Of a stretch of DNA of 64,000 nt, positions 13,758 through 63,775 are shown one piece after another. The DNA is from a virus (lineage: Duplodnaviria; Heunggongvirae; Uroviricota; Caudoviricetes). Position numbers and translations under genes: made by a program. The stretch lies in IMG/VR virus record IMGVR_UViG_2721755712_000001; one strand, given 5' to 3'. The notes beneath the pieces are model-generated. The model saw nothing but the letters and a program-made list of their open reading frames with translations. It was not told the DNA's origin and searched no databases. Position 1 is the first letter of the stretch; each line of letters begins with the position of its first letter.

Positions 13758-13762
13758 TAAAT

Positions 13763-18060: not shown

Positions 18061-18138
18061 ACCAACTCCTAGCTAACAGATGAAAGTATTCTCACAGAAA
18101 GATAAGTAATCATCTACTTATTTTAAAGGTGATTGTTA

Positions 18139-19398: not shown

Positions 19399-20739
19399 TT
19401 AGGTAACGTCTAAGATTCGCTCAATGAAGCGCATTTGTTCGAGGTTTTGTTTAACGCGAATGCTGATCCCTCCCTGCTGGTTACGTGAACCAGCAAAGTA
19501 GAGACGAGCCTCTCCTTTCGCTTCTTCTTCTTCTGTTTTGTTGATCGTTATTACCAGGTCAGCAATACGTACTTTTTCGATGTTGTCGGCAGCGTGCATC
19601 ATTGTGGCAACTTCTGACGCGCCACCTTCACGGTTTGTTTGCGATGCTGTGATACCAGCAACGTTGTGTTTGTCATAAAGAGCACGTAAGTCGGTATAGA
19701 TACTACGTATGTTGGCGCGATCATCACGAAGGTCATAACTGGCACGCATCAAATCTGCATAGTCGACAACAACCATGTCAGGCACCATGCCATTGGCTTT
19801 CATGCTGTTAAGCATACGATCCAGATCTGCCGGTGACATACTTCCTGACGGACGCTCAACAACCCACAAACTACCAATCCCCTTCGTGGCTCCCAACTCT
19901 GCCAACTTACGATGAACCTCATCGCGCCGTTCCACCAGCTTGGACATTTCTGTCTCCGACAATCTTGCATCAAAACGGTCGGATAAAATGGTGGTGTGAA
20001 CCTCCAGCGAGAGATACAGAACATTGTAGCCAGCAAGCGTTGCGTTTATGGAAAACTCACCCATTGCGGTCGATTTACCGGATTTAGCGAACCCCATGAA
20101 GAGCACCATTTCACGCTTCGCCCAGCCTTTTTGGTACAGCAACCTATCGAGCAGAGGGAGTCCAGTTGTAATGCTGTTTGGCACATACTCCTCTGAAGCC
20201 TCATATTCACGCGCTTTCAATCGCTCACTTGCGGAGGTGTAGTAGTCATAGATTCCGGTCGCTTCGTTCGATCCAATCTGCTGAACCTTGGCCATGATTG
20301 CCATCGCCCCCTGAAAGTCGCCCTTCTCTTTCAGTTCAGCAGCCTTAATCAGAGCATCATCAAACGCTACGCTTTTTGCGAAGGTTGATACCTGGTCAAC
20401 CATGTACGAGGTATCAGACAATTTTTCTGCAAGGATGCGCTTAAACGCAGCAACAACATCGGCGAATAGTTCCTCACGGATAGTCTTATCGCGTTTCGCA
20501 CGCTTAAGCATATCCAGAATCGCAGATGAAGAGGGCGCGCTCTTGTACATACGGTAATAGCCCGAAACCATATTAACCAATATGGCATTGGCCGCATTGG
20601 CAAATTGGCTAGGTACAACCAGATCTCCAGCACGAGTAAGAAACTCGTGATCACGACAAAAATAGGCCGTCAATCTGTTCTGAAAATCTTCATCAAACTC
20701 TTCGGACAGCCCGCGTCCTGTATGGCAAAGTTCGGTCAT
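19399..20739 (-). CDS. replicative DNA helicase (DnaB-like RecA-fold ATPase)
   Basis: Walker A GFAKSGKST, Walker B VVVDYADLM, ITASQTNREG resembling the DnaB-family Q/R motif. Confidence 0.7.
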   Translation of the reverse strand: MTELCHTGRGLSEEFDEDFQNRLTAYFCRDHEFLTRAGDLVVPSQFANAANAILVNMVSGYYRMYKSAPSSSAILDMLKRAKRDKTIREELFADVVAAFKRILAEKLSDTSYMVDQVSTFAKSVAFDDALIKAAELKEKGDFQGAMAIMAKVQQIGSNEATGIYDYYTSASERLKAREYEASEEYVPNSITTGLPLLDRLLYQKGWAKREMVLFMGFAKSGKSTAMGEFSINATLAGYNVLYLSLEVHTTILSDRFDARLSETEMSKLVERRDEVHRKLAELGATKGIGSLWVVERPSGSMSPADLDRMLNSMKANGMVPDMVVVDYADLMRASYDLRDDRANIRSIYTDLRALYDKHNVAGITASQTNREGGASEVATMMHAADNIEKVRIADLVITINKTEEEEAKGEARLYFAGSRNQQGGISIRVKQNLEQMRFIERILDVT

Positions 20740-20782: not shown

Positions 20783-23071
<2,289 letters not shown>

Positions 23072-23491
23072 CCGTCGTGCAGCTGCGGAAAGAACGGTGG
23101 AGATAAAGTAGTCGTATGAGCAGCAATAGCGGTCAGCAAACTGGCGTGCTTTCCATAGAGACGTTTTATTGGCAGTCGACAACTCCTGATAAGGCAGGCG
23201 TTTTAACCCGGTGGTGAACGGAGCTGTTTCAAAGTGTTCGCGACCGTGCGTCAGCATGATATTTGAGTACTGACGTTTGTATGCCTCCGTAAAAAGACAG
23301 GTGGCCATGAGAGGATGCATGTCGCGGTAATCAAACCACTTCGTCTCGAAGAGTTCAGCCTCATCTTTACAGCGCGACAAACCAATGTTTTCAGCAACCC
23401 ACTTGTCCATAACAGCGGTATTCCACTCTGTCATGAAGTCGTACTGGTTGTTGTCGATGGTATCGAAAAAGATTTGGCTCATGTGGCTCAC
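23072..23491 (-). pseudogene. N-terminal fragment of the phage gene interrupted by the IS element
   Basis: ORF 23015..23491 continues into the IS right end before stopping; first 140 codons are phage-derived. Confidence 0.6.
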
Positions 23492-23597
23492 CTGGTAGGT
23501 AGTTACTTACTTATCACGATGAGCGGATGATAGCGACTGGTGGCAGTTTTTGGAAGTGGAAACGGAAGGGAGTTGTTCTGGTGGTGTCTTTTAAAAG

Positions 23598-23652
23598 ACC
23601 TGCTTCCGTATATATTTAATAAGTTACTTATTATTTATATATACAGAAGCAG
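23598..23652. repeat. 55-bp near-palindromic element, copy 1
   Basis: CCTGCTTCCGTATATATTTAATAAGTTACTTATTATTTATATATACAGAAGCAGG, identical to 54905..54959; sits in the divergent region between the interrupted gene and the GIY-YIG gene. Confidence 0.9.
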
Positions 23653-23764
23653 GCATAACTTGTCGTCTTAGACGCCCAGAAGCTCTACACTTTGAGCCTG
23701 TTAAATTGATTAAAAACTTATGTGTAAAATAGAACGCATTAGTCAGTAGCAAAGAGATGCAATA

Positions 23765-28382: not shown

Positions 28383-31300
28383 TCAGTTACTTGTTGCCCC
28401 AACAGTACCGGCAAATTTCAGCCATTGACCTGACGGACTTCTATTACTGCGGTAGTGATAAACGAGGATTGCGTTTGTCACTCCACCGTAATCAGCTTTA
28501 TGTGACGTTGTTAAACGAATTGTATAATCACCGTTAGGTAGATTAAAAACTTCGATTATAGATTCTGCTAATTCTACAGCACCAAATCCCGTTATATTGT
28601 TGATACTGCCAGCATTGAATCCCATAGCATCGCCAAAGCCAATCCAATATCTTTTGCTAAACGCCCCATTTGATTTAAGGTGGCTAATGAATGTGGACAA
28701 ACTCATGCCCATATCCCCACCTGAAATAGAGGAAGTTCGCACAGTCATGCTTGGAAGAGCACTGCTCTTCACATAGGAACTTAGAAGATTCGTTACCTCT
28801 GTTTTCGTATAAGCATTAAGGTTAGCCGCAGTCAAAGTAATATCGGCAGAGCCATCAAACGCCACACCAGCAATTTTCCTTGCTGTCTGCAATTTTGTGG
28901 CGGTTGCTGCATTGCCAGTTGTATTCTGATTGCCAGTGGCATTCACACCAGGAATGGAGTCCCTTGATGTATATACCTGCGCCCACGCTGACCATGCCGC
29001 ATCTGTGGTATCTCTTCGTGAGCGAATGAAAACTGGCGCATGTGCACCGCTCGTACCACTCCAGCCAATAAGCAACTCGCCCTCACCAGCAGCACTCGCA
29101 CCTTTCATGTGCAATACGTTGCCATACGTGGTCGGGTAGCTAGTGCTGTACGCCTCGTACATTTGAATGCCAGCAGTGCCTTGAGTAGAGCCGCTTAACG
29201 CCGTAACTCGGCCACGAGATACCAATGTATTAATATTGATATCGCCTGAACCATCAAACTTAACACCATTGATGTTTCTCGCTGTTTGCAACTTCGTAGC
29301 AGTAGCCGCGTTGCCCGTTGTATTCTGATTACCTGCCGTATTTACACCAGGCAAATTTATGTTCGCAGATCCATCGAAGGCCACGCCGCCGATAGTTCTT
29401 GCAGTCTGCAATTTCGTTGCTGTAGCAGCATTTCCTGAAAGACTTGAAATAAATGGATGTGAACAGTAATAACCTCGTCCATTTTTAAAGTCCAAAATTA
29501 TCTGTGCATTCGTACTTTCTGATAAAGGATCAGTTGCCCCCCACTTATAAGTGGTTTGACCAACTGCATAATCAGCCGTTGGAACAATTACGTTCAAGCC
29601 CTCCTCAGCAAATATCTTGATAGGGAATGCTCTGGCTTCAACGTAAAATACACTACACAAATCGTCATCTTTCACACTTGAAATAATCGAGTGTATAGCT
29701 CGCTCAGCAGTAGAATATATTGAGAAAAAACCAGCCGCATATGAACCGCGATCAGACCAACCGCCAGGCATAACAAACCCATTAAATTCACAATTATTCA
29801 TGGCGTATCCGCCAACTGAGGAACCAGTAGTTATCACAACTCGTGAGGCTAATTCATCGGTACTGCCTCTAGATCGGCGAAAGACTATAGGATACCACTT
29901 ACCGCTTACTGCATTTGCAGGCGCTGAAAAAGTGTATTTTCTCATCCCTTTTTTATTGTCTATTTCGCTTTTGCTGTATACGTCAAGGTTCGCAGGAGTC
30001 AGCGTTATGTCCGCAGAACCATCAAACTTAACACCGTTGATTGTACGCGCTGTCTGTAGTTTTGTAGCGGTTGCAGCATTGCCGGTAGTGCTCTGATTAC
30101 CAGCCGTATTAACACCTGGCAAATTAATATTCGCAGTACCATCAAAGCTCACGCCGCCGATAGTTCTTGCCGTCTGAAGTTTTGTAGCAGTTGCAGCATT
30201 ACCAGTGGTGTTCTGATTACCCGTAGTATTTACACCTGGAAGGTTGATATTTGCAGAACCGTCGAAACCAACTCCACCGATAGATCTTGCCGTCTGCAAT
30301 TTCGTTGCTGTACTTGCATTACCATTTAATGTTCCGGTGATACCACCAGTAACAGACAACGGACCTGAAACTGTTCCTCCGGTTGTTGGCAGTGCTCCAA
30401 TATCTAACGGCGTCGGTTTCTGATGTGTGCTATACATCGTATAAACAACACCATCGGTAACGCTGGAAGGCTTACTCGCTGAATATGTTGGCGATGTATA
30501 AATAGAAACTGACGCATTTGCAGTACAATCCCAATGGATATTTACACTCGTCGCATAATTGCCAATTTCAACGTAAATATCATATGTATCGCCGGATGTG
30601 TTGATCCAGGCGAAATTCGCTAATCCGACAGCTGTACGCTTCCACAAAGCACCTGTAATTCCTTTGGGGTTTCCATTGCCTGCTCGTAGAACCAGTTCTG
30701 AAATGCCTGCCTGATGTGGGGAACCGACGTTGTAACCAGCGCCACCAATCAATGCGATGTAAACGATGGAACTCGCTTGTGGCATGGTAACCGTAGCCAG
30801 TTTGAACCACCCTGCCCCGCCAGAGAAAGACATCGTTACTGAATTTAAAGTACCAATATCTTTCGGCGTTAATGTGATATCCGCAGTCAGTGCTTTTCCG
30901 TTAACTTTTCGGTTAGATGGCACCCTGCTATTCGCATTGTCATTGGCTGCTTTAACTGCTTTTGGCGTTGCGGCCAGCGATTCACTGGTGCTGTCGACAG
31001 CACTGCTAAGTTTCACAACACCTTTAGTTGTAAGGCTTGCGTCTTCCATCGCAACTGCACCGGCAATCTCTTCAGCACGATCAGCAGCAGCTTCCGCACG
31101 GGTCGCAGCGGATTCAGCAGCAGTTTTGCTCTGAGATGCTGCCGTCGCACTGCCTGCCGCCTCTGTTGCTTTCGTGGATGCCGTCGTGGCGCTGCCCTTC
31201 GCTGCTGACGCCTGTCTGGTCGCCTCATCTTTTGAAGCAGACGCCGATGATGCCGATGACGCCGCCGAACTGGCGGACGATGCGGCTGCCGTTTTTGAGG

Positions 31301-32411
31301 ATTCTGCACGGTTTTCCGACGCTTTCGCGTTCGTTTCGGATGTCTTCGCTGCGGAAGCAGACCTCGCTGCTGCGCTGGCCTGTTCAGTGGCTTGGCCAGC
31401 CTTCGTTGTGGCTGTTGAAGCAGACGATGCGGCACTTTCTGCCGATTTTCCGGCGGCGGTGGCACTGGCTGAGGCCTGCCCGGCACTTGTTGACGCGGCA
31501 CTGGCAGACGACGCAGCCGCTGTTTTTGAGCCTGCCGCAGCCGAGGCGCTCTGTCCCGCTGCCGTTTCAGAAGACCTGGCGTTCGTCTCGGACGTTTTTG
31601 CCGCCTTCGCGGAATTTCCTGCCGCCGTTGCCGAGGAAGCGGCATTACTGGCGCTCGAGGCTGCGCTCGTTTCTGATGATTTCGCTGCCTCTTTTGAGGC
31701 CGCCGCATCCCGGGCTGAGGTGGCAGCTTCTGACGCCTTCGTGGTCGCGGTGGATGCAGAAGTGGCTGCAGATTTTTGTGACGCTGCAGCATTCGTTTCA
31801 GATTTTTTCGCAGCAGTTGCACTCGCACTTGCGGCACTTTGTGAGGATGCCGCAGCGGATGCACTTTGAGACGCTTGAGAGGCTTTTTCTCCAGCGGCAT
31901 TGGCGCTTTTTGCTGCTGCGGCAGCACTGGCCGCCGCCTCACGAGCTTTGTCGCCAGCAGCATCAATCGCGTCAGTGTTATTTTTATACCACTCAACGTT
32001 TTCGTTGTGCTCGTTGACGATCTGCATTAGCGGCTTAACGGTCACTTCTGTACCGTCTTCACGCTCGATTGTCACCTCATCCAGCGCAGTCAACCAACTG
32101 CGTATGGACTTGGAATCAGCCGACATACGCGACATTAGCGCAGTAAAGCGCGCGCTAAACTGTGTTAAGTCGCCTTCATAGGTCGTAATGATTCGGCACG
32201 GAACCTCAGACTGAGTTTCGCCGGTATAAGGTTCTGAGAGAACAATATTCGTATCGCTTATTACGCGCTTGATCTCGTACAGCTTATTGTCGGGGCCAAT
32301 GACGATCATCCCCGGCAACACACCATTAGCTGTTACGTTCCAGGCTGTCCCTGCCCCAACCAGAGTATTGCTACCCTGTGTAAATGTGATAGTACCTTCC
32401 CTGTACCACAT
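28383..32411 (-). CDS. tail fibre protein with Ala/Ser-rich region and repeated fibre motifs
   Basis: 1342 aa; about 300-aa Ala/Ser/Thr low-complexity tract; at least five copies of ...NTTGNAATATKLQTAR.IGGV.FDGSANINLPGVN... Confidence 0.8.
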   Translation of the reverse strand: MWYREGTITFTQGSNTLVGAGTAWNVTANGVLPGMIVIGPDNKLYEIKRVISDTNIVLSEPYTGETQSEVPCRIITTYEGDLTQFSARFTALMSRMSADSKSIRSWLTALDEVTIEREDGTEVTVKPLMQIVNEHNENVEWYKNNTDAIDAAGDKAREAAASAAAAAKSANAAGEKASQASQSASAAASSQSAASASATAAKKSETNAAASQKSAATSASTATTKASEAATSARDAAASKEAAKSSETSAASSASNAASSATAAGNSAKAAKTSETNARSSETAAGQSASAAAGSKTAAASSASAASTSAGQASASATAAGKSAESAASSASTATTKAGQATEQASAAARSASAAKTSETNAKASENRAESSKTAAASSASSAASSASSASASKDEATRQASAAKGSATTASTKATEAAGSATAASQSKTAAESAATRAEAAADRAEEIAGAVAMEDASLTTKGVVKLSSAVDSTSESLAATPKAVKAANDNANSRVPSNRKVNGKALTADITLTPKDIGTLNSVTMSFSGGAGWFKLATVTMPQASSIVYIALIGGAGYNVGSPHQAGISELVLRAGNGNPKGITGALWKRTAVGLANFAWINTSGDTYDIYVEIGNYATSVNIHWDCTANASVSIYTSPTYSASKPSSVTDGVVYTMYSTHQKPTPLDIGALPTTGGTVSGPLSVTGGITGTLNGNASTATKLQTARSIGGVGFDGSANINLPGVNTTGNQNTTGNAATATKLQTARTIGGVSFDGTANINLPGVNTAGNQSTTGNAATATKLQTARTINGVKFDGSADITLTPANLDVYSKSEIDNKKGMRKYTFSAPANAVSGKWYPIVFRRSRGSTDELASRVVITTGSSVGGYAMNNCEFNGFVMPGGWSDRGSYAAGFFSIYSTAERAIHSIISSVKDDDLCSVFYVEARAFPIKIFAEEGLNVIVPTADYAVGQTTYKWGATDPLSESTNAQIILDFKNGRGYYCSHPFISSLSGNAATATKLQTARTIGGVAFDGSANINLPGVNTAGNQNTTGNAATATKLQTARNINGVKFDGSGDININTLVSRGRVTALSGSTQGTAGIQMYEAYSTSYPTTYGNVLHMKGASAAGEGELLIGWSGTSGAHAPVFIRSRRDTTDAAWSAWAQVYTSRDSIPGVNATGNQNTTGNAATATKLQTARKIAGVAFDGSADITLTAANLNAYTKTEVTNLLSSYVKSSALPSMTVRTSSISGGDMGMSLSTFISHLKSNGAFSKRYWIGFGDAMGFNAGSINNITGFGAVELAESIIEVFNLPNGDYTIRLTTSHKADYGGVTNAILVYHYRSNRSPSGQWLKFAGTVGATSN

Positions 32412-32504: not shown

Positions 32505-35500
32505 TCACAGACGGCCAATTCTTACTCGTAAGACGTTGTTATCGTCATAAACGTCAATCCGCTGACCATTTATAACCAATCGCCCATTGCCGCCGCTATT
32601 ACCGTTGATCTCAAGCGTTCCATTTTTGCCGAACCGCCATCCAGATCTACCGCTAACAAAATTGGTAGATTGCAGATCGCCTACTTTTGCATTGGTGATT
32701 GTGCCATCCTTGATATACGCTCCATTCATATAGGCGATACTGTTTTCGATAACAAATGGCGTTGTGATCTTCCCGTTAACAGAGTTGACCAAACCAAACC
32801 TGTCCGCCTGAACCAAAAACTGAGATAGCCCAGTGGTGTCAATACCAAGCGCAATACCGGCAACATACTTCTGCCCTCCGCTCGTTGAAGTCTCCATTTT
32901 CAACGTCCACGCGGTTGATACTTTTTTGTTGGTATCAGCAATAGCTGTTGCCTGCTGTTGAATTGTCGCGGTATTTCCATCCACCTCTGCTTTCAGAGTA
33001 TCGATTCGCCCACTCAGAGCATTATCTGCCTGCGTTCTCGCTGTCGTTTCAGTTGTTACCGCCGCGGAAATGTTGGCTGCCGTTTGAGACTCTAAGTTTG
33101 TGATTTGAGTCGCCAGTGCCGCATCTTGCTCTGTACGCGTTTTCGTTTCGGTTGCTACAGCCGCTTTAATATCCTCTTTGTATTGAGAGGTCAGCTTGGT
33201 GATCTGAGACGACAACGCCGAGTCAGCATCAGTTCGAGCCTGCGTTTCAACTGCAACGGCCGCACTAATATCTTTCGCAGTCTGTGCTTTTAAACTTGAA
33301 ACCTCTTTTGTTAAAGCGGTATCACCATCTGCACGAGCCGTTGTTTCTCTGGCAAGAGATGCCTCAAGATCATTAGCTTTTGCTGTAAGAGACGTAATCT
33401 GAGTGGACAATGCACTATCGGCATCAGTCCTTGCTTTTGTCTCTACAGCAACCGCTGCGGCAATATCAGTTCCGGTTTGTGCTCGCAGGCTGTTAATTTC
33501 TCGTGAGAGCGCCTGGTCAGCACTTGCTCTGGCCTCCTGCTCCTGAGTGATGGCAGCGGATATATCACCGTCAACCTTTGACTGAAGCTGGTTTATTTGT
33601 TTGGCTAACGCAGAGTCCCCGCTTGCTCGGGCCTCCTGCTCACTACGTATTGCAGCAGAAATATCATCATCAACCTTTGCCTGAAGTTGGGTGATCTGGC
33701 TTGCCAGAGCCGAATCTTCCGTTGCTCGGGCTTCTTGCTCTTCCTTAATAGCTGCGACGATATCGTTGCTTACTTTCGACTCAAGCTGAGTGATCTGTGT
33801 CGTCAGAGCTTCATCGGCAGATGTACGAGCCTCCTGCTCTGTACTAATCGCCGCGCTGATATCTCCTTCAAACTTAGATTGCAGCTGAGTGACACGCTTT
33901 GCCAACGCTTCATCGCCATCGGCACGAGCGGTGGACTCTTCCAGAATACTGGCCTTAATGTCTTCGCCAATTTCTACGCGAATTTCCTCAACCTTCGTGG
34001 CCATTGCAGACATATCATCAGCAAAGGTTTTCTGTGTTGTTGCGATCTTCGCGTTATTGACCATCTGCTTGTGCTGGTCTTCATCTTGACGAAGAGCCAG
34101 GTCAATATTTGTTTTGGCCAACGCCTCAATGTTCGTAGTCAGTTCTGCACTGGCACGATCGACCTCTGCAACCGTCTTTTTCATTTCTTCAACGGCAGCG
34201 GAGCTTTCCTCTACCGTTGACTGCAACACTTCCAGTTGTTTAGCGTTTGCAGCATCGCCTTCAACACGAGCCTCGCTTTCCTTAGCAATAAGAGCCGCCG
34301 CTTCATCTCTTGCAGCCTTTATTGCCTCGACTGTATTAGCGAGAGCTTTATCGTGTTCAGATACGGTGTTTTCGATTTCAACAATTGCAGCATCAGTAGC
34401 ATCAATTTTTTCAAACGCTTCATTGACCTTGTCGATCGTTGCCGAAACCTCACCTTTAAGCTCGGTTTGTGCGTTCTCCAAAGCATCGCTACGCTCGTTG
34501 AATTTTATTTCAAAATCCGCGAGGTTATCGCTGAACTGCTTATCTAATTCAGCTATATCTTCCTTAACGTCGTTTACCGACCCCTCCAAAGATTCGACGC
34601 TCTGGTTGATATGCTCATTTAACTCGTCAACTGCTTCTTGAGAGGCTTTGCTGTTGATGTCCTCAAGCAGAGCCTGACCAAGCTCGGAAGATGTAATTTT
34701 GCCAGTCAGGAACGACAGTACATCGCGAGTTGTCGCCTCTGTACCCAAGTTTGAGTTCGGAGGACTTAACATACCTCGCTTGTTCGATGCTCGAACCCAG
34801 TAATACCACGTTTCGCTATCCCCAAGACCAGCATGTGTAAAGGTGGTGCTTGCAGACTCTGCGATCAGTTTCGCCGTATCCAGATTGTTGGTCTGGGATG
34901 CGTAAACATTAATGTGATCAAGGTCCACCGAATCTGGATTAACCCAATTCAGTATCACATTACGATAGTCTCCAACGGCCGTTAATGACGTTGGTGCATC
35001 CGGCGGTGTCATTGTGCCCAGCACCTGATAAACGGTACTGATAATTTCTGTTTTTTTACCGTTGAATGAAACCGCATACAGTTGGAAGTCGTAGCGTCCA
35101 TTCTCCGCGACATTAACGATTTCGTATTGCTCTTCGGTTACACGCGCCGATTGCCAGTTCGATACATTGTTTTCATCAGAACGTCGCCAACTGATCCAAT
35201 ACTCTGGAGATTTCCCTTCCCATGTTGCAGTCAGTTTTACTGACAGGTTGCCAGGGCTTGAGAGATAAGTCCCTTCGGTGATTTGCAAATTAGACGGCTT
35301 GGAGTAAGTCGGGTCCAATACCGTCGTATTTTGCGGGATAAGCGTTGCACCATTGTCGATCGCCTCATATTTAGACGGATTGTTCTCAACAGCGGTGATG
35401 TCAAAGCTACCCGGCGTTTCCCCCTGCGCGATGTTAACGATGCGAACGCGCATAGGTTCGAGGTCTGGTTCTGTAATAGTCCAGACGCCGTTCAAAACAG

Positions 35501-37238
35501 GCGTTTCAGCCGAAGACAGGGATTTTGAAAACGTAACTTTTGTTATATTTTCGCCAGTTTCAAGAACATCGCGTTCAACGATTTTGCCTTCCTGATTCAG
35601 TATTCGAATAAAGCAGCCGCCTTTGGCTAACGACACCGGCGCATCGAGTGTGACGCTGTTTTTGGTAAACGCCACAATTCGACCTGAGTTACGTTTGCCT
35701 GCGCGATATTTGTTCTGAATCAGAACGGTTTCACCAGGCATCAGAAATGACGCGTCTAAGCCGGCAGTAAATGTAATTACATCCGACTCCATTCTGGCGG
35801 TATATAAAAGCCACAAACCAACTCGGTGAGCCTGCCCTCGGCTTGTACAGCCAAATGCTACGACTTCTGTCTTACGCTCACCATAACGGCGCATTGCGTC
35901 CTGATCTTCAACGTACTCGATGTTTTGCTTATAACCGTCCTCCTTGTTGTTGTAGGTTACGAGCGCAACGGATGGGCGATCTTTACGCGCAGAACCTTTA
36001 TAGGTAAACAATCCATCTTTGACGTTAGAGTTGGTAAACATCATTACCGGATCTGATGGGCTATCCTGCATGATGTTAACCATCCCACCAGCCCAAAACA
36101 CCATGCCGCGGAATGCTCCAGCAATATCCTGAATTAGTCGGTATGCGTCCTGTCGACTGGTGATCTGCGTATTGATTGCAAAGCGTTTCTCTTTGCCACC
36201 AAAGCCATCATCGACCTCTTCGTCACAATATCGACCAATCTGGTACAACTGGCCAAGGTCAATCATAGATTCCGACACATACTGACCAAGGCCATATCGA
36301 GCATTGGTCAGCAAATCAAAGAGAATCCACGCGGGGTTCGAAGAAGACAACAGCTTAAAAGTGCCATCCCATACCCCAGCGTAAGTGTTACTGGACTCGT
36401 TATAGTTTGAAGGTACTCGAATTTTTAGGCCACGCACCAGATAAGAGCGAGATGGCATGGTGCTGCCGAATTGCTCAGAGTTTACCTTCAATCCAACTAA
36501 AACAGAGTTTGGATAGTTCATCGGTGTATCGACAATTTCCCCGATTGAATCCACCCATGTATCGTTATAGAGATACTGGCTACTGTTATCATCGGTAATA
36601 CGGACTACACGAACCTTGTATGCGCGTCCAGGCTTAGGCAGCTTCAGCTCGTAGCTACGGTAATAAACGCCGGTCTTCTTTGCTGTTAGCTTAATGCCAA
36701 CGCTTTTTTCACCTTCCGCGACCACATCTACAAATGTTGAGTCGCCATTTGCTATCTGGAACTTGTACTCAACAGTCGTACCGTTCGTGTCACCAGTTTT
36801 TTTATCTATGCTTCGCAAAGAAGGAAACTTCATGATGACACGAACCCGATCAGCTTCATCGTTATCGATTGAAACCGTTACATAATGTGTTTTTTTTAAC
36901 TGGATATTGACGGATTTAGGCGTTTCAACGAAATCAAAGCCAGACATTGGAGTTTGGTCTTGCGAACCGTCGCGAAAATCCCATGTGATTCCGCTGAAGT
37001 TGGAGGAACCGTCTTCATTTACAATCGGCAGATCGTCGATAAAAATAGATCTTGCGCCATTTACTAAGCCGCCAATTACCCCTTCCCCAAGAAGATCGAG
37101 GATAGCGGCCATTGCACGAGAATTTACGGTATCGTCGGCTTCAACCGGTGTACGGCTGGAGCTTTTGCTGCTTTTTTTACCACCCGCACCGGCAATAAAC
37201 AGCGGTAGCTTTTTCTTCTTGAACTGTTCCATGTTCAA
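32505..37238 (-). CDS. J: central tail fibre / host specificity protein, lambda J-like, with expanded coiled-coil repeat region
   Basis: 1577 aa; N-terminal and central regions share long motifs with lambda gpJ (VLVGLKVNSEQFGS, AFGCTSRGQAHRVGLWL); about 15 tandem copies of a roughly 33-aa heptad-like repeat before a J-like C-terminal domain. Confidence 0.9.
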   Translation of the reverse strand: MNMEQFKKKKLPLFIAGAGGKKSSKSSSRTPVEADDTVNSRAMAAILDLLGEGVIGGLVNGARSIFIDDLPIVNEDGSSNFSGITWDFRDGSQDQTPMSGFDFVETPKSVNIQLKKTHYVTVSIDNDEADRVRVIMKFPSLRSIDKKTGDTNGTTVEYKFQIANGDSTFVDVVAEGEKSVGIKLTAKKTGVYYRSYELKLPKPGRAYKVRVVRITDDNSSQYLYNDTWVDSIGEIVDTPMNYPNSVLVGLKVNSEQFGSTMPSRSYLVRGLKIRVPSNYNESSNTYAGVWDGTFKLLSSSNPAWILFDLLTNARYGLGQYVSESMIDLGQLYQIGRYCDEEVDDGFGGKEKRFAINTQITSRQDAYRLIQDIAGAFRGMVFWAGGMVNIMQDSPSDPVMMFTNSNVKDGLFTYKGSARKDRPSVALVTYNNKEDGYKQNIEYVEDQDAMRRYGERKTEVVAFGCTSRGQAHRVGLWLLYTARMESDVITFTAGLDASFLMPGETVLIQNKYRAGKRNSGRIVAFTKNSVTLDAPVSLAKGGCFIRILNQEGKIVERDVLETGENITKVTFSKSLSSAETPVLNGVWTITEPDLEPMRVRIVNIAQGETPGSFDITAVENNPSKYEAIDNGATLIPQNTTVLDPTYSKPSNLQITEGTYLSSPGNLSVKLTATWEGKSPEYWISWRRSDENNVSNWQSARVTEEQYEIVNVAENGRYDFQLYAVSFNGKKTEIISTVYQVLGTMTPPDAPTSLTAVGDYRNVILNWVNPDSVDLDHINVYASQTNNLDTAKLIAESASTTFTHAGLGDSETWYYWVRASNKRGMLSPPNSNLGTEATTRDVLSFLTGKITSSELGQALLEDINSKASQEAVDELNEHINQSVESLEGSVNDVKEDIAELDKQFSDNLADFEIKFNERSDALENAQTELKGEVSATIDKVNEAFEKIDATDAAIVEIENTVSEHDKALANTVEAIKAARDEAAALIAKESEARVEGDAANAKQLEVLQSTVEESSAAVEEMKKTVAEVDRASAELTTNIEALAKTNIDLALRQDEDQHKQMVNNAKIATTQKTFADDMSAMATKVEEIRVEIGEDIKASILEESTARADGDEALAKRVTQLQSKFEGDISAAISTEQEARTSADEALTTQITQLESKVSNDIVAAIKEEQEARATEDSALASQITQLQAKVDDDISAAIRSEQEARASGDSALAKQINQLQSKVDGDISAAITQEQEARASADQALSREINSLRAQTGTDIAAAVAVETKARTDADSALSTQITSLTAKANDLEASLARETTARADGDTALTKEVSSLKAQTAKDISAAVAVETQARTDADSALSSQITKLTSQYKEDIKAAVATETKTRTEQDAALATQITNLESQTAANISAAVTTETTARTQADNALSGRIDTLKAEVDGNTATIQQQATAIADTNKKVSTAWTLKMETSTSGGQKYVAGIALGIDTTGLSQFLVQADRFGLVNSVNGKITTPFVIENSIAYMNGAYIKDGTITNAKVGDLQSTNFVSGRSGWRFGKNGTLEINGNSGGNGRLVINGQRIDVYDDNNVLRVRIGRL

Positions 37239-46293: not shown

Positions 46294-46767
46294 TTAACCT
46301 CTCGTAAATCCGGCTTTTCTGGCAGCCTCAAGAATCGCTTCTGAGAACTGCTTCTCGCTAATTTCCACCGCTCTTTCCAGAAAGTGTGGCCCAACACGGG
46401 GTTTAACACCGGCAATTGGTGGGTTTGTCACGTTCTTCATTCGAGAAAGATAACCGAGTCGGTATTTACCCAGCTCCATGTACTTAGCATAGTCACCTAC
46501 TTCTACGCCCGGATGCCCCTGACGTGGTTTTGCTCCAGACACAGAAAGCTCAATACGCAGCCCTGAATAACCTTCTTTAATCACCCTGGCAAAGATGGCT
46601 GTCTCCAGAGATCCGGTTTCCAGCGGGGCCATTGCACGGCTGAGACGCTCAACCAAACGCGCCAGCTTTTCCATGTCCCGAATAAGATATCGCTTAAATG
46701 CTTTCTGGCTGTTGTTGAGTCGATTCCCCGCACGTTTGAACTGATGCGCATCGTATTTCAGACCCAT
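46294..46767 (-). CDS. head-tail connector / tail completion protein
   Basis: 157-aa ORF in the head-tail joining block; positional inference. Confidence 0.45.
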   Translation of the reverse strand: MGLKYDAHQFKRAGNRLNNSQKAFKRYLIRDMEKLARLVERLSRAMAPLETGSLETAIFARVIKEGYSGLRIELSVSGAKPRQGHPGVEVGDYAKYMELGKYRLGYLSRMKNVTNPPIAGVKPRVGPHFLERAVEISEKQFSEAILEAARKAGFTRG

Positions 46768-52898: not shown

Positions 52899-54155
52899 CT
52901 ATCGAGAACCACCAAGAATAACACGGTTTTTGACTGGATACCTACGATGTACTGGATAGCCCAATGCGTCTGCACTATGCTCAATGCCACCTGTCTTATC
53001 CATATCTCGTGTTCCAGGCTTGTAGATGACTTTTTCCAGTGAATCAATCAAATGCTTGCACTTCGGATCGATATACAGCCGGATATCTCCAGATGCGGTC
53101 ATCAGCATTCGGTTAACAGCATTAACACGATCCGCAATTGGCGGGTGCTTTTTCGAATAATCGACACGTAAGAATCCCTTCTCTTTGAATATGTCGACGT
53201 CAGACTCCCCGCGAGCATGTTGGCGATAAGCACCTGCCGGATCTGGAAATACCGTTATCTGTGATTTCCAGCGCCAGAAGCGTCTCTCAAGCTCATCACA
53301 AACCTCTGCCGTGTTAGAGGAAAAGAGCACCAATTCATCAATTGCCCATAGCTCACCATTTGGCTGAGGTTGCAAAATTACGGAAGACATCGGGTCAATG
53401 TTGAAGTCCTGCCCTACCCATATAGGCAACCGAGGGTTGAACTGAAGCGGTTTTACATGCACGTTACGATCAAACGGGTAGTAAACGCGCCCGGACATGT
53501 TCTCAAAGCTGGCCAGGTACTCCTGAGCGAACGATTTGGGGTCCATATCGTTCTTAGCAGCTTCAATTTCCGCCGTAGGTACAAACGGAGAATCGGCAGT
53601 TACAAACTGCCAGCTCTTCCACTGTCCCTTTCTTTGCAGCTCTACGTTCTGGCCTATAGTCCACAGTTTGTGAAATTCCGAGAAGCCTTTTGGCGTACCA
53701 ATGATCAGTGCACCGCCGCGTGTCGATGAAAGAGTAGGTCGTAACACCTTGTACCAGGTGTCAGCCTTCATATCCTGAAATTCATCAAGCACTACAAAAT
53801 GCAACGCTACGCCGCGCAGAGTGTCAGGCTTATCAGCACCTTTGAGGGCGATCTCCGAACCGTTCTTCAACACGATTGTCATCGTGGTGTCGTTCTTTTT
53901 CCTAACCCACTTACGAGGCAGAACTTCCTGTAGATCGTCCCACAAAATCTGGCGAGCCATTTGGTAAGTAGGAGCGACATACCAGACCCTTTGCTTTTTT
54001 TCCTTTGCCGCCGCACGAATAATAGTGGAGATCGACAACCGGGATTTTCCCCAGCGTCGACCAGCACAAACAACTTTAAATCGATGCGGAGACTGGAAGA
54101 CTTTCATCTGTCCAGAATGCAGTTGCACAAGACTGAGCGAGGACGGGATTGCCAT
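52899..54155 (-). CDS. terminase large subunit
   Basis: 418 aa; Walker A-like VVCAGRRWGKS, Walker B HFVVLDEF, and an acidic C-terminal nuclease-like half. Confidence 0.8.
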   Translation of the reverse strand: MAIPSSLSLVQLHSGQMKVFQSPHRFKVVCAGRRWGKSRLSISTIIRAAAKEKKQRVWYVAPTYQMARQILWDDLQEVLPRKWVRKKNDTTMTIVLKNGSEIALKGADKPDTLRGVALHFVVLDEFQDMKADTWYKVLRPTLSSTRGGALIIGTPKGFSEFHKLWTIGQNVELQRKGQWKSWQFVTADSPFVPTAEIEAAKNDMDPKSFAQEYLASFENMSGRVYYPFDRNVHVKPLQFNPRLPIWVGQDFNIDPMSSVILQPQPNGELWAIDELVLFSSNTAEVCDELERRFWRWKSQITVFPDPAGAYRQHARGESDVDIFKEKGFLRVDYSKKHPPIADRVNAVNRMLMTASGDIRLYIDPKCKHLIDSLEKVIYKPGTRDMDKTGGIEHSADALGYPVHRRYPVKNRVILGGSR

Positions 54156-54787
54156 TATTCGTCCTCCTCTTCACTTCCATCATCTGTCGCATCAAATTCG
54201 CTTAGAGCTTCTTCTTCCAACGTCTCAAGCAATTCGTCATCGATGATTTCAGGCTCGTCGTCTTCCTGACGTAATTTCGCCACCTGGGAAGGCGTAAGCT
54301 CACCAAATACCAGGTTCGGAATTTCTTCCTCGTCATTTTCCGCATGATCCATGCCCAATGCTTTGGACGAAACTTCAAAGCATTTTGCAAGGGTATTACT
54401 GGCTCTCTGTAAGCTCTTGAGAGAATCCTCAATCGCCCCTAAAGGCTTACCCTCACGTTTGGCCGTAGTGACTTCGACCATCACCATCTGCCCCAACGCA
54501 TACGCCCAGCCGTCATAACGTGTACGACGTTCTTCTATCTTTTCCGCACGGGCTTTAGCGCGAAGCTCTGCGTCAGATTTAAGAGACTCACGAACCATCT
54601 TCCCAACAGAGTCCGCACCTTTCTCTAATCCTCGCTTTTTGAAATGTCTGGAGAGTGTTTCACGACGAATGCCGTACTCTTCCTCCAGCTTTGAGAGTGT
54701 ATATTCGCCTGACGTCCATTTGGCTTCAGCTTCGGCCCACTCCGCTGGTGTCAGGCGAGTTTTTACCTCGTCTTTTTCGACCGTCAT
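54155..54787 (-). CDS. terminase small subunit
   Basis: 210 aa; N-terminal HTH-like LSKLEEEYGIRRETLSRHFKKRGL, acidic C-terminal tail; overlaps the large subunit start. Confidence 0.55.
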   Translation of the reverse strand: MTVEKDEVKTRLTPAEWAEAEAKWTSGEYTLSKLEEEYGIRRETLSRHFKKRGLEKGADSVGKMVRESLKSDAELRAKARAEKIEERRTRYDGWAYALGQMVMVEVTTAKREGKPLGAIEDSLKSLQRASNTLAKCFEVSSKALGMDHAENDEEEIPNLVFGELTPSQVAKLRQEDDEPEIIDDELLETLEEEALSEFDATDDGSEEEDE

Positions 54788-54904
54788 AGATCCCTCTAAA
54801 ACACACAGAGCGCGTCCATGCGCTCTAAAACAACTTGTTTACTGAATCTGCTAACCAACTTGTTTTCTGGGGTGTTTAATTAGGTCTGGGCATGTCTTAT
54901 TAAG

Positions 54905-54959
54905 CCTGCTTCCGTATATATTTAATAAGTTACTTATTATTTATATATACAGAAGCAGG
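54905..54959. repeat. 55-bp near-palindromic element, copy 2
   Basis: identical to 23598..23652; about 120 bp upstream of the small terminase start. Confidence 0.9.
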
Positions 54960-54983
54960 TCTTTAAATAAGCTCCCAGACCGA

Positions 54984-55250
54984 TTACATCACCAGTAACT
55001 TCGCTTTGGCTCGACCTAAAGTGGTTAACCCAAGAGTTCGGCGGTGATAGCGATTGTCACTGCGTTGGCGCGTATGCCCTTTCTCCACCAGCCCCTTTTT
55101 TATCAGAGCGCGAATTGAGAACTGGATACTTTGCTTGGTTGTCTTGTACGGCAAAACTTCAAGCAATTCGTCCAGATCAAGTAAATGACCTCGCTCATAA
55201 CCGAGATTGAGCGTTTTGATGATGTCCTTTTGTTTATCGGTTAACGTCAT
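54984..55250 (-). CDS. small DNA-binding protein (winged-helix-like)
   Basis: 88-aa basic protein ending the upstream operon; helix-turn-helix-like core TTKQSIQFSIRALIKKGLVEKG. Confidence 0.4.
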   Translation of the reverse strand: MTLTDKQKDIIKTLNLGYERGHLLDLDELLEVLPYKTTKQSIQFSIRALIKKGLVEKGHTRQRSDNRYHRRTLGLTTLGRAKAKLLVM

Positions 55251-55259
55251 GGCAAATCC

Positions 55260-56150
55260 TTATGCCGGTAAAGCAATTTCTAACGGTTTATCCAAAGGTT
55301 GTTTGTCGAATGCCAGCAGTGGCAGCGTGTCAGGCAGCCGACGACCAAAGTCAGGGTTTCGGTACACACCATACAACGGAGACGTAAAGCTCAGGTTGTG
55401 AATGTCCTTGAGCAGCTTCACAATGCTGGCCTCGTCCACCAGACTGTCGGCAATGTCCTGAATCGTCGTGCCACGATTCCGCCCAGCTTTTGCCAGGGAA
55501 CTGTTCTTGTGGTAGTCCGCTACCAGATCACGCAGTGCACGGCGACGACGAGACTCGCTCATTGCGAACAACTCTTTGACGATCGCCTCGTTATCACCCG
55601 GGTCGGAACGGAAATGGCGCTGGAATACACGCAGTGCACTTTCATAGCTCTTCGGTCGCTCAGGGCGGATGAACTTAAACCCTGCTTTCATGGCGAAGGG
55701 ATTGTATTTGCTCATCGAGGACTGGATCTCAATGATTGGCCGGTCATGCATCCTGCTAACCAGGTTAATCATTCGATAAGAGACGCCTACGCCACGATAC
55801 TGAGTATCCACAACTGAGCGACTGATCACCGCAAAGTTGTTATTCACGTACCGACCCCAGTACTGGTTAGCCACGGTGGTATTAGTGGTTGGTTTCAACT
55901 TAGGAAACATGCGGTGGCGAGGTGCCAACAGTAGTTTCGGGTAAGCCATAACCACGACGCCCACCAGACGGTCATCAAGTTCGCAGCGATAGTAAGTTGG
56001 CGCGAAAGGTTTGCCGTCTGTTTTGTAGTGAAGCGACTTAAGAGCGTGCCAGTCCTCTACAGTTCCCTTTGTGACAGTCATTCGCTCCAGAAAGTCCAGA
56101 TGACGCGGAAACTCTTCAGGGCGGTAGCGTTTAATGATGATGTCCGTCAT
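55260..56150 (-). CDS. hypothetical protein with GNAT-like acetyltransferase motif
   Basis: 296 aa; VVDTQYRGVGVSYRMINLV (Q/R-x-x-G-x-G) and NPFAMKAGFKFI resemble GNAT motifs A and B; about 130 extra C-terminal residues. Confidence 0.35.
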   Translation of the reverse strand: MTDIIIKRYRPEEFPRHLDFLERMTVTKGTVEDWHALKSLHYKTDGKPFAPTYYRCELDDRLVGVVVMAYPKLLLAPRHRMFPKLKPTTNTTVANQYWGRYVNNNFAVISRSVVDTQYRGVGVSYRMINLVSRMHDRPIIEIQSSMSKYNPFAMKAGFKFIRPERPKSYESALRVFQRHFRSDPGDNEAIVKELFAMSESRRRRALRDLVADYHKNSSLAKAGRNRGTTIQDIADSLVDEASIVKLLKDIHNLSFTSPLYGVYRNPDFGRRLPDTLPLLAFDKQPLDKPLEIALPA

Positions 56151-58175: not shown

Positions 58176-58239
58176 TAAGTAATCACTTACTTATTATAAT
58201 AGCCAAATAACATACAAAAGGCACTAAGGAAAGAGGTTT

Positions 58240-59799
58240 ATGACTGTTCGGATTGTATCTAACGCAGTAAATGCGCTTATTTCTGGCGCAGATGACAAGG
58301 TAAAGCAAATGGTGCAACAGATGTTGAGCTACGAAGTCGAGACTGGCGACTGGAAGGGCACAAGCACGATGTTCAACTGGAGTAAAAACTCGTTCCCTGC
58401 TGGCTTTGCCAAGCCTGTAGCGGCGAACTTGAACAAGGCGGGCATCAAATGTGTTCATATCCGCAAAGACAAAGCCCCGGCGCTTGGTAAACCAAATCCG
58501 GCGGTTAACCCATTCCCATACAATCCTGATTATGCGTATCAGGATCAGACTGTGGAAACACTGGTTCGAGAGGGAATGATGATTGCGCAGATCGCTACTG
58601 GTGGCGGGAAATCTAATGTTGCCTGCAAAGCAGCTGCACGTATCGGTCGAATGACATTATTTTTAACAACCCGCTCTGTTCTGATGTTTCAAATGGCCGA
58701 AAACTTCCAGAGATCCATCGACTACCGCGCCAAAAATGGCGAACCGTGGTTAAAAGACCAAAAGGTTGGAGTCATTGGCTCGGGTGAGTTCCAGGTATCA
58801 CGACATATCAACGTCGCTACAGTTCAAACTCTTGCAAGTTTCCTCGAAGAACCACCACGCGATGCAACACCAGATAAGAAAAGCTACCACCTCAAACGTC
58901 GGGACTTGGTGAAACGCTTCCTTTCAAGTGTGTCTCTGCTTATTCTGGAAGAGGCGCATGAGTCTTCAGGTTCTAATTTCTATGACATTGCCAGATTATG
59001 TGTGAACGCAGACTATCGTCTGGCACTTACGGCCACGCCGTTCATGAAGGATTCTACAGAAGCCAACATGCGTCTGATGGCTGTGGCTGGGCGAATTGAA
59101 ATCAAAGTCACAGAAAAGTACCTGATTGATCGAGGCATTCTGGCAAAACCGTACTTCCTTTATCATAAAGTTGCCTACAAGCCAGACGAGGCCAGAATCA
59201 AGGCCGAACTTGCCAACAAACACCTCAATTTTAGAGTTGGTATGAGCACCGCCTACCAAAAGGCTTATCAGTTGGGGATCGTGTATAATTTGGGACGTAA
59301 CGAGGCCATTGTGCGCGAAGCATTGCTCTATAAGCAACATTCTCTCAATTGCATGACTCTGGTTCGTCTTAAACGCCACGGGCAAATCCTGATGGAAATG
59401 ATGAAAGAGTCCGGCCTTAGAGTTGACTTCATTTATGGGGAATCGAACCAGTCGACAAGGCAAGCAAAGCTGAACAGTTTAGCGTCTGGTGAAATAGATG
59501 TTTTAATAGGCTCGACTATTCTGGATGTTGGTGTTGATGTGCCAAGCGTTGGTGCGGTCATTCTTGCTGGTGGTGGGAAAGCAGAAGTTGAAATGAGACA
59601 GCGTGTCGGTCGTGGCTTACGAGCCAAGAAGAATCAGGCAAACGTGTGTTTTATCACTGATTTCATTGACATTAGCAACAAATACCTGTTGTCTCACTCT
59701 TATGAGCGAAAACACATCATCGACACCACACCTGGCTTTGCAGAAGGTGTATTGCCTATTGATGGCGCATTCGATTTTGGAGTTCTGAAACGAGATTAG
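58240..59799 (+). CDS. superfamily 2 helicase (DEAD/DEAH-like)
   Basis: motif I ATGGGKS, motif II LILEEAHE, motif III LTATP, motif VI QRVGRGLR. Confidence 0.75.
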   Translation: MTVRIVSNAVNALISGADDKVKQMVQQMLSYEVETGDWKGTSTMFNWSKNSFPAGFAKPVAANLNKAGIKCVHIRKDKAPALGKPNPAVNPFPYNPDYAYQDQTVETLVREGMMIAQIATGGGKSNVACKAAARIGRMTLFLTTRSVLMFQMAENFQRSIDYRAKNGEPWLKDQKVGVIGSGEFQVSRHINVATVQTLASFLEEPPRDATPDKKSYHLKRRDLVKRFLSSVSLLILEEAHESSGSNFYDIARLCVNADYRLALTATPFMKDSTEANMRLMAVAGRIEIKVTEKYLIDRGILAKPYFLYHKVAYKPDEARIKAELANKHLNFRVGMSTAYQKAYQLGIVYNLGRNEAIVREALLYKQHSLNCMTLVRLKRHGQILMEMMKESGLRVDFIYGESNQSTRQAKLNSLASGEIDVLIGSTILDVGVDVPSVGAVILAGGGKAEVEMRQRVGRGLRAKKNQANVCFITDFIDISNKYLLSHSYERKHIIDTTPGFAEGVLPIDGAFDFGVLKRD

Positions 59800-62816: not shown

Positions 62817-63467
62817 ATGACTAACATTATCATTTCTAAAAAGTCCATCATTGAAGCTGCTGCCATTGTATCCGACGAGCTGCGCGAAAAAGCAGATCTG
62901 GCAACTCAAACATATAACGAACATTATAAAAATGGTACGCACACAAAAGCAGACAAAGCAAATATGCAAGCTGCAACCACTAAACTTGCTTACTTCATCA
63001 ACAACGTTGTAAACGCTGTAGAAGACGAAAAATTGTGCTCTGTTTTCTACTATGCGATCAAAGCAAGCAAACAAGCGCCAGAAGTATTTTTCCGTGATGC
63101 AATGACTAATAGTTATTCTCTGGAAAAACTGGTTTATCTGGTTAAATCCATTAAAGCTGGAAAGTGTGTTTATTCCGTCGCTGATATGTCCGGATCTCGT
63201 GTATTCGCATTAATCGATATGATTAACGACGAGATCGACACGTTCACCAATGGCGCTGTTTTCGATTTAATGAATGAAGCGAAAAAAGCGTGCGAAATTA
63301 AATTGGACGCTGGCTATACTCAAGCCAACCAGTTGATCAATCTTTGCGAACGTCTTGGACTTGTTGAAAAAGTCAAAGGAGCTGGGAGCGCGAAAGCTGG
63401 TACTCAGCAATATCGCTTCATTAAAAATGATTTCTATAACTATCTGGCTGATGCTTTCAAAGCGTAA
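62817..63467 (+). CDS. hypothetical protein
   Basis: start taken at the second ATG with better spacing from TAAGGA; the track ORF begins at 62808. Confidence 0.45.
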   Translation: MTNIIISKKSIIEAAAIVSDELREKADLATQTYNEHYKNGTHTKADKANMQAATTKLAYFINNVVNAVEDEKLCSVFYYAIKASKQAPEVFFRDAMTNSYSLEKLVYLVKSIKAGKCVYSVADMSGSRVFALIDMINDEIDTFTNGAVFDLMNEAKKACEIKLDAGYTQANQLINLCERLGLVEKVKGAGSAKAGTQQYRFIKNDFYNYLADAFKA

Positions 63468-63480
63468 TTAATGGAATCTT

Positions 63481-63501
63481 GCGCCCACTATGGGCGCTTT
63501 T
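63481..63501 (+). terminator. hairpin terminator/attenuator
   Basis: GCGCCCA-CTA-TGGGCGC followed by TTTT, between two co-oriented genes. Confidence 0.6.
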
Positions 63502-63745: not shown

Positions 63746-63751
63746 AATCGA

Positions 63752-63775
63752 GCGCCCACTATGGGCGCTTTTTTC
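63752..63775 (+). terminator. Rho-independent terminator
   Basis: second exact copy of GCGCCCACTATGGGCGC followed by TTTTTT. Confidence 0.65.

Follow-up and report, generated by a model that had tools for sequence, protein, structure and literature searches.

A long palindrome ahead of the small terminase gene of SSU5-type phage-plasmids and its copies at the heads of other gene blocks

Introduction

The PeSL (promoter-early-stem-loop) cassettes of T4-type phages reportedly consist of a short stem-loop, repeated between genes, together with an early promoter. The nutR-tR1 layout of lambda and the put sites of HK022 are signals for processive antitermination. The pac site of P1, which is itself a phage-plasmid, has hexamer boxes arranged around a central cut region, and the pac sites of P1 and SPP1 adjoin the gene of the small terminase, occur in single copy and are not known to be long perfect palindromes. 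Regulators of late genes are encoded upstream of the small terminase gene (terS) in phages of Gram-positive bacteria, where they belong to the RinA/ArpU/LtrC family, and the Lpa late promoters of P1 contain a small inverted repeat. The telRL site of N15-type elements is a 56-bp palindrome.

SSU5-like phage-plasmids are among the commonest large plasmids of Escherichia coli, Klebsiella, Salmonella, Enterobacter and Yersinia pestis, and some of them carry resistance genes. In the literature searched, we found no description of lytic-gene control or DNA packaging in these elements, nor of their DNA ends, their pac or cos sites or the palindrome considered here. We have analysed a 64,000-nt stretch of DNA (the window) that holds two copies of a 55-bp palindrome, one of them just upstream of terS.

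Results

By its sequence the window is an SSU5/pHCM2/pMT1-type phage-plasmid, and the region matches the Escherichia phages CMS-2020a, PhiR41_1 and Cyrano (pLF82), Salmonella phage SSU5 and Klebsiella relatives. A segment of 221 bp round the terS-proximal palindrome matched 797 plasmid records, with hosts comprising E. coli, Klebsiella, Enterobacter, Salmonella (including the pHCM2 type), Citrobacter and Y. pestis (pMT). On the minus strand the genes run in the order two ParB-N-domain genes, an ABC-type ATPase gene, a 296-aa gene, an 88-aa gene, the palindrome, terS, the large terminase gene (terL), the portal gene and the structural block (Table 1). The palindrome begins 24 nt past the stop codon of the 88-aa gene and ends 117 nt before the ATG of terS (54787), both genes being on the minus strand. 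It thus lies inside the 196-bp gap directly ahead of terS/terL, where a sequence-only reading of this DNA had placed it, and the minus-strand structural block that this reading traced from 54787 down to about 28383 is confirmed and continues slightly beyond.

Table 1. Coordinates of the features around the two palindrome copies of the window
Feature	Position	Strand	Basis or remark
55-bp imperfect palindrome, terS-proximal copy ('type I'), module core	54905..54959	-	repeat search and folding
Extended, ~99-bp hairpin-forming symmetric region around the core	54883..54981	-	folding; boxes kept in relatives
Second TCTGG-type box, terS side (CCAGAA on the minus strand)	54865..54870	-	part of the ~60-nt downstream homology of the three module types
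Two 13-bp palindromes: AAACAACTTGTTT at 54828-54840 and an imperfect copy at ~54855-54867	54828..54867	-	type I-specific
Intrinsic-terminator-like GC hairpin (54827..54806) with U-rich tail, just before the terS ribosome-binding site	54794..54827	-	terminator scan
Small terminase / DNA-binding protein gene (terS), first of the structural block	54155..54787	-	phrog_867
Large terminase gene	52899..54155	-	TerL homology
Gene for 88-aa winged helix-turn-helix (MarR/PadR-like fold) protein, ending 24 nt before the palindrome	54984..55250	-	predicted structure
Identical 55-bp palindrome ('type III'), 116 nt upstream of the replication block's first gene	23599..23653	-	
Region downstream of the type III copy: TTCTGG box at 23576-23581, weak promoter, conserved block CCCTTCCGTTTCCACTTCC	23527..23581	-	
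5' part of conserved phrog_2500-family gene (start 23482), cut by IS100-like insertion	23015..23491	-	
TAAGT-N(1-11)-ACTTA sites	6191, 11991, 14587, 18103, 23620, 32456, 45886, 51377, 54926, 58176		pattern count

A repeat search of the whole window returned the pair 23599-23653 and 54905-54959 as a 55-nt direct repeat of 100% identity. The sequence-only reading had taken the two for the same element, which was correct, with the distant copy at 23598..23652, which is off by one base. Both copies read CCTGCTTCCGTATATATTTAATAAGTTACTTATTATTTATATATACAGAAGCAGG. The outer arms of 17 nt each (positions 1-17 and 39-55) are complementary save for one C/A mismatch at arm position 9, and between them lies an inner palindrome, TAATAAGT-T-ACTTATTA, whose centre is shifted by one base from the outer one. 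Arm matches with up to three mismatches number 4 in the window against 0.11 expected, and the palindromic symmetry of the 55-mer far exceeds chance. Folded as DNA, the 55-mer gives z = -9.0. As RNA, a 70-nt segment holding the core folds at -30.8 kcal/mol, and the 106-nt extended region forms one hairpin of -50.6 kcal/mol (z = -10.3); the extended region of the 23599 copy shows the same folding behaviour. The stem of 17 + 7 bp is AU-rich apart from its GC-rich base, where 8 bp (CCTGCTTC/GAAGCAGG) include 5 GC pairs, which amounts to the stable GC-rich hairpin of intrinsic terminators. The outer boxes of the extended region are GGTCTGGG at 54883-54890 and CCCAGACC at 54974-54981. The 13-bp palindromes of type I (AAACAAGTTGTTT) are strongly conserved in E. 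coli and Salmonella relatives, while one of them is deleted in Klebsiella relatives; situated after the big palindrome and ahead of the leader terminator, they have the right size for the operator of a winged-helix dimer.

The second copy stands, in the window, between divergently transcribed genes. On its gene side the phrog_2500-family gene precedes a DnaB-like helicase gene (19399..20739) and is interrupted by an IS100/IS21-family element (~21150-23073, with istA-like 21204-22226 and istB-like 22223-23005); bases 23000-23073 are identical to IS100kyp ends from other phage records. On its other side, a GIY-YIG-like ORF (phrog_5356, 23765-24532) diverges from the copy. This ORF is present in CP053388 and PhiR41_1 and absent from Cyrano and CP054387, whose homology to the window ends exactly at the palindrome. 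Other observations concern more distant parts of the window: a full-length Rfam match to the cspA thermoregulator (187.6 bits, 496-914), three minus-strand tRNA genes (13594-13837, Rfam), four tandem 99-nt repeats (33492-33887, 62-72% identical to the first) inside a 1577-aa ORF (32505..37238), dispersed repeats of 113-197 nt (28840-30323) inside a 1342-aa tail-fibre-like ORF (28383..32411) and a terminator-like sequence, GCGCCCACTATGGGCGCTTTT, which occurs twice (63467-63501 and 63738-63772, 271 bp apart) with similar AT-rich leaders.

About 90 instances of the element were gathered by a pattern scan of IMG/VR and from the plasmid matches, and their flanks sort them into three orthologous locus types. 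Type I lies before terS and type III before the replication block; type II follows the phage Dam methylase gene, has a small gene and then rnhA downstream of it, and falls outside the window. E. coli elements have a diverged version of type II (seen in L048). Within the phage database only 12 records, all of them SSU5-like, contain the element. The genes of SSU5 lie almost entirely on a single strand, and this phage carries one copy per type, at 103263-18 (0 kb), 78304-78360 (78.3 kb) and 33458-33513 (33.5 kb). The three sites divide its genome into one block for structure, lysis and partition, another for replication and nucleotide metabolism, and a third made up of small, regulatory and ParB-like genes. 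All three stand 23-28 nt past a stop codon and are followed by a start codon after 116-119 nt, a spacing shared by the two window copies, which are 31.3 kb apart. The repeated unit exceeds 55 bp: TCTGG/CCAGA boxes are present on both sides, the upstream one 12-22 nt from the core; the downstream side has CCCAGACC-N8-10-CAC(C)YCCAGAA, and some 60 nt there are homologous among the three types. Type III copies keep their gene-side flank and adjoin at least ten unrelated sequences on the other side, which indicates that the module travels with its downstream block. No target-site duplications were seen at copies of the three locus types, and a MITE- or REP-like mobile repeat was ruled out, given some 90 instances at three orthologous loci. 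Several plasmids of 51-70 kb are deletion derivatives of SSU5-like elements (L140, NZ_CP027108.1; L141, NZ_CP116350.1; L005, CP057716.1). All three have lost the terminase genes, and L140 most structural genes too, and they retain one palindrome module along with many replication and regulatory genes. A search of the gene content of these palindrome-keeping plasmids for a co-occurring binding protein left too many shared genes.

Across the family the core measures 51-57 nt and varies mostly in its number of TA units. In the direction of transcription its 3' arm, TATACGGAAGCAGG, is almost invariant and its 5' arm varies as CCTG[CT][TGA]TC[CT]G; the half on the terS side is the invariant one. 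The counts in 24 distinct cores, which are not phylogenetically independent, are C-G 6, T:G 13, C:A 3 and T-A 2 at arm position 9 and C-G 18, T:G 5 and C:A 1 at arm position 5. Arm mismatches on the sense strand are therefore T:G in 19 cases versus C:A in 4, with the same reservation as to independence, and this bias towards wobble-compatible mismatches suggests that the arms pair in a transcript. The SSU5-type copy after the Dam methylase gene has C:A rather than T:G mismatches. Between the two window cores there is no difference, against 3-5 positions that separate them from the orthologous SSU5 cores; this indicates recent conversion or homogenisation in the lineage of the window.

A search of genome contigs with terS gave close relatives only, and distant ones were reached through TerL homologs. 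Three of these (L142, L143 and L144, at 75, 70 and 63% TerL identity) have genes that run from an ATPase gene through a ~300-aa and a ~90-aa gene and across a gap to terS and terL, and each has a long palindrome with an AT-rich centre directly after the ~90-aa gene (folding z = -5 to -6). An Acinetobacter phage-plasmid whose TerL is 59.6% identical has a symmetric element of ~112 nt before terS, and over all four relatives the palindromes form hairpins at z = -5 to -7. The GC arms are AGGCATTAACCGCGCTTCC/GGGAACGCGGTAGATGCCT in L143 and GAGGCATCGTTTTGCTCC/GGAGCAAAACGAAACCTC in L144, unlike SSU5-type arms yet complementary, while the centre of L144 retains ATAAGTAATTACTTACTTAT. L144 additionally carries one inverted box on the upstream side and five CTCAGR boxes on the downstream side, and a terminator made of a GC hairpin and T5 precedes its terS; no such leader terminator is evident in L142 or L143. 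In the Acinetobacter element one flank has two TTTGGG boxes and the opposite flank two of the CCCAAA type, with one helical turn between boxes, the arms (CTTCGAATA/TATTCGGAA) recall CTTCCGTATA/TATACGGAAG, and a hairpin with a T8 terminator precedes terS. No second big palindrome was found in the Acinetobacter plasmid, including at its helicase operon. Since its only copy is terS-proximal, this copy is probably ancestral and the other two probably represent an expansion in the enterobacterial lineage. Because both arms have changed together with complementarity kept, the symmetry itself is under selection, which fits either a hairpin or cruciform or a symmetric binding protein that co-evolves with its site. 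As to other genes of the Acinetobacter relative (L146, NZ_CP096701.1), a sigma-70-family sigma factor gene lies at 18089-18754, between a MoxR-like ATPase gene and dnaE; the corresponding position of SSU5 (46442-46645) has a 67-aa ORF only.

The sequence-only reading had the palindrome marking a late or packaging promoter region, or a pac-proximal site, for the structural operon. That it marks the head of the packaging/late block is borne out, since the long palindrome is kept at this exact position down to 59% TerL identity and is thereby tied to the head of that block. A role specific to late transcription or packaging is contradicted by the family, because in SSU5-type genomes two gene blocks that are not structural begin with this module as well. 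The late promoter did not materialise either: scanning of positions 54000-56000 on both strands gave no sigma-70 consensus with -35 and -10 hexamers 16-18 nt apart, and there was no promoter candidate in the 117 nt between palindrome and terS. Type III has a weak sigma-70-like promoter, TTCCAA (23555..23550), 17 nt and TATCAT (23532..23527), which is downstream of the palindrome and not within it. Across type III copies this reads TTCCAA-17-TATCAT/TATGAT, and type II has TAGAAT.

The copies differ as terminators. In types II and III a run of 4-5 U follows the stem in the direction of transcription (GCAGGTCTTTT, GCAGGCTTTTT; tail scores 1.7-2.9), so that the replication-block and Dam-block copies look like terminators; the tail of the replication-block copies, including that at 23599, is UCUUUUAAAA and scores 2.6-2.9. 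The tail of the terS-proximal copy, CUUAAUAAGAC, scores ~1.2. It has no U-tract, the terminator scan made no call at the palindrome, and this copy is therefore not a canonical terminator. A bidirectional terminator at the same copy was rejected, as the U-tract is absent in both directions. Compared with Rho-independent terminators in general, the module has the GC-rich stem base and, after the replication- and Dam-block copies, the U run, but its stem is long and largely AU-rich, whereas the ordinary terminators of the window are short GC hairpins. The leader terminator at 54827..54806 shows a compensatory stem change from G-C to A-T in L034 and L101. No Rfam family matched the element at gathering score; there were only far sub-threshold matches to generic long-hairpin microRNA models.

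A small palindrome, TAAGT-N(1-11)-ACTTA, is dispersed in these genomes. The window has 10 sites against 0.5 expected, mostly between genes, and those at 23620 and 54926 are the centres of the two 55-bp palindromes. SSU5 has 12 matches against ~1 expected, most of them 2-44 nt past stop codons. A related string with stop codons in all three frames, GATAAGTAAGTA, has 21 matches in the window against 3.6 expected. In the Acinetobacter element the pattern TAAG[CT]GCTTA takes this place, with 14 sites against 0.24 expected, one of which is the centre of the big palindrome. From one lineage to another, the centre of the element and a palindrome found between genes throughout the genome have thus changed in step, and these patterns point to a single sequence-specific factor that would recognise both. 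The site at 58176 lies in the gap 58176-58240 between a divergent ParB-like operon (start 58175, minus strand) and a DEAD/UvsW-like helicase gene (start 58240, plus strand). It sits right at the start of the ParB gene, and the ParB-like operon, which is transcribed in the direction of the palindrome, is likely to have its promoter region in this gap.

The 88-aa protein encoded beside the terS-proximal palindrome has a predicted winged helix-turn-helix fold (pLDDT 82), with MarR/PadR-type regulators as best structural matches (TM 0.7-0.78). L142-L144 encode orthologs (50-65% identity) at the equivalent place, and the recognition helix is well conserved among lineages with completely different GC arms. 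If it binds, the protein should therefore read the centre or the boxes rather than the arms; on the predicted structure it is a candidate for the element-binding factor. With the late-gene regulators named above this arrangement shares a gene for a small DNA-binding protein directly 5' of terS, a symmetric site between the two and small palindromes before many genes, but the protein differs from the RinA/ArpU/LtrC family and Lpa in its predicted fold and has no detected sequence relation to them.

With regard to packaging, the nearest solved structures to TerL are those of Thermus phage P74-26 TerL and T4 gp17. Among named phages, the Jersey-, Kagunavirus- and T5-like terminases share 25-27% identity with it, and no known cohesive-end group was found among its nearest characterised relatives. 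The single site per genome expected of cos is absent, there being three copies in SSU5 and two in the window; unit-length cutting at cos is hard to reconcile with three direct copies, which are compatible with headful packaging. The GenBank record of SSU5 is split within the palindrome, at a point 18 nt in from the edge that faces terS, and the Cyrano record one base away. The latter was probably merely oriented like SSU5. We found no account in the literature searched of how the SSU5 record end was chosen, and the Cyrano paper gives no end determination. The split of the SSU5 record is the only hint of a physical DNA end. The PhiR41_1 record starts at a gene, Klebsiella phage records do not start in the palindrome, and the ends of IMG/VR contigs do not coincide with it.

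Discussion

Our results suggest that the palindrome is the core of a repeated module, and we tentatively favour the view that this module is a boundary element, bound by a factor, that gates transcription into each gene block. On this account a two-fold-symmetric module of ~100-140 bp would act on its own DNA and mark the start of a large block of genes in the same direction. The terS-proximal module, which heads the packaging, head, tail and lysis block, would have been copied in SSU5-type elements to the heads of the replication and Dam-downstream blocks. A very stable transcript hairpin, or DNA held by a protein and possibly in cruciform form, would insulate the block from upstream transcription. 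The module would also be the docking site of a phage-encoded, sequence-specific factor that reads the small TAAGT..ACTTA palindromes between genes as well, and the adjacent winged-helix protein would be the candidate for this factor. The intrinsic terminator just before terS may form a second gate for the late block, in which case late expression would need read-through (antitermination) or an activator. We infer both the transcriptional action of the element and the identity of its binding protein. The gating reading seems to us the most economical because it accommodates the fixed spacing, the linkage to the downstream block, the two terminator-like tails, the leader terminator, the winged-helix gene and the companion motif.

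Several observations count against the gating reading. The lack of a U-tract means that the terS-proximal copy, at least, is no canonical terminator. The Dam-gene copy of the SSU5 type has C:A mismatches, the recognition helix of the winged-helix protein is well conserved across differing GC arms, and neither L142 nor L143 shows an evident leader terminator. A plain RNA hairpin within this scheme is disfavoured by the conservation of arm sequence beyond pairing, with an invariant terS-side half and a variable other half, and a nut-like RNA role by the fact that no promoter could be placed upstream of the palindrome. The module resembles nutR-tR1 and the put sites in its layout, with the end of an upstream gene, a conserved hairpin, an intrinsic terminator and then the next genes, and with near-identical copies at the heads of long operons; in particular, the order of putative transcribed hairpin, terminator 54827..54806 and terS is present. 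The module differs in having no identified boxA-like element, N-like protein or upstream promoter, in its hairpin being several times longer and in its DNA carrying flanking box repeats.

The gating reading is ahead, and its main rival, possible though doubtful, is a packaging start of the pac type, in which the small terminase would bind the TCTGG/CCAGA boxes and the large terminase would cut the AT-rich centre. The extra SSU5-type copies would then be additional, harmless pac sites for headful packaging of more than one genome length. Location and boxes are those of a pac site: the element adjoins terS at a distance of 117 nt, a position kept to 59% TerL identity, and short repeated boxes that vary with lineage (TCTGGG, CTCAGR, TTTGGG) flank the centre, with helical-turn spacing in Acinetobacter, in a layout that resembles P1 pac. 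An invariant terS-side half, a SSU5 record cut inside the palindrome and a TerL whose relatives are Jersey-like, T5-like and P74-26-like, none of them known cohesive-end groups, also agree with this reading. However, there are three copies per SSU5-type genome, each exactly at the head of a gene block, and the module is kept in deletion plasmids that have no terminase genes. The start of the Cyrano record probably copies the orientation of SSU5, and end-mapping data were not found in the literature searched. The pac sites of P1 and SPP1 differ from the SSU5-type module, which is multi-copy and contains a long palindrome.

A bolder form of the gating reading is also rather unlikely, namely that the three GC-clamped super-sites are master gates, which would silence three lytic blocks in the plasmid state and open in order on induction. 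In this form the small palindromes of the whole genome (TAAGT..ACTTA, and TAAGCGCTTA in the Acinetobacter group) would co-evolve with a single phage-encoded factor, which would make the winged-helix protein beside the ancestral site the effector.

It is less likely that the element works purely as an RNA hairpin after the last gene of a block, setting mRNA stability through RNase III processing or a REP-like protection of the 3' end. The constant distance of 23-28 nt past a stop codon would suit such a role, as would the related small palindromes 2-44 nt past stop codons in SSU5, the great stability of the hairpins and the bias to T:G mismatches on the sense strand. However, the 23599 copy lies between divergent genes in the window and is thus not entered by transcription from a gene upstream, it is the downstream rather than the upstream gene that the module accompanies, and the conservation of arms and flanking boxes exceeds what pairing needs.

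Two further explanations seem improbable. The first is a lytic replication origin, or a DNA-unwinding or cruciform element that replication proteins of the phage itself would use. A (TA)n centre that melts easily and is clamped by GC arms would be apt for this, and one copy is directly upstream of the operon of the phrog_2500-family and DnaB-like helicase genes (in SSU5 also primase), with repeated CTTCCG motifs nearby; however, the most conserved and probably ancestral copy is before terS and not at replication genes, and the Acinetobacter helicase operon has no such element. The second is a repeated cassette of little function of its own that persists as a recombination substrate at module boundaries, like the promoter-stem-loop cassettes of T4-type phages. 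The variety of at least ten different sequences adjoining the replication-block copy, the break in homology to Cyrano and CP054387 at the palindrome and the recent conversion suggested by the identical window cores are what this would predict. The PeSL cassettes are similar in being short repeated intergenic units, at boundaries with variable gene content, that join a stem-loop behind one gene to regulatory sequence of the following one. They differ from the SSU5-type module in that the latter has three large copies only, at fixed orthologous loci, with a longer (55-100 nt), GC-clamped hairpin, and a promoter that is weak (replication- and Dam-block copies) or absent (terS-proximal copy). The conserved position of the terS copy extends beyond sequence similarity, and retention of that position and of the architecture despite complete sequence turnover argues for selection on function; the location of the copies at three fixed loci without target-site duplications also counts against a mere cassette.

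That the palindrome is itself the late promoter is very improbable: it is AT-rich, has TATAAATA-like strings and lies ahead of the first late gene, but no -35/-10 pair passes a scan in either direction, the same core heads non-late blocks, and the AT-rich centre and arms change freely in relatives. A site for site-specific recombination is unlikely because three direct copies would delete segments of 30-45 kb. A telomere-resolution (protelomerase) site was rejected; the element resembles telRL in its length, its alternating pyrimidine/purine centre and its further flanking inverted repeats, but the related plasmid records are all circular and there are three direct copies per genome. The SSU5 annotation tables name no protelomerase.

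If the element were only a terminator-like spacer, the result would be an ordinary one. In any case, the module is a conserved and easily recognised non-coding landmark, whose three copies delimit functional blocks of the genome, and it serves as a marker for the junctions at which gene modules exchange. Together with the companion motif and the winged-helix gene, it provides testable handles on regulation and packaging in these elements. If the master-gate reading were true, the three sites would constitute a still-unknown switch between plasmid and phage life in a family that includes pHCM2 of Salmonella Typhi and pMT1 of Y. pestis.
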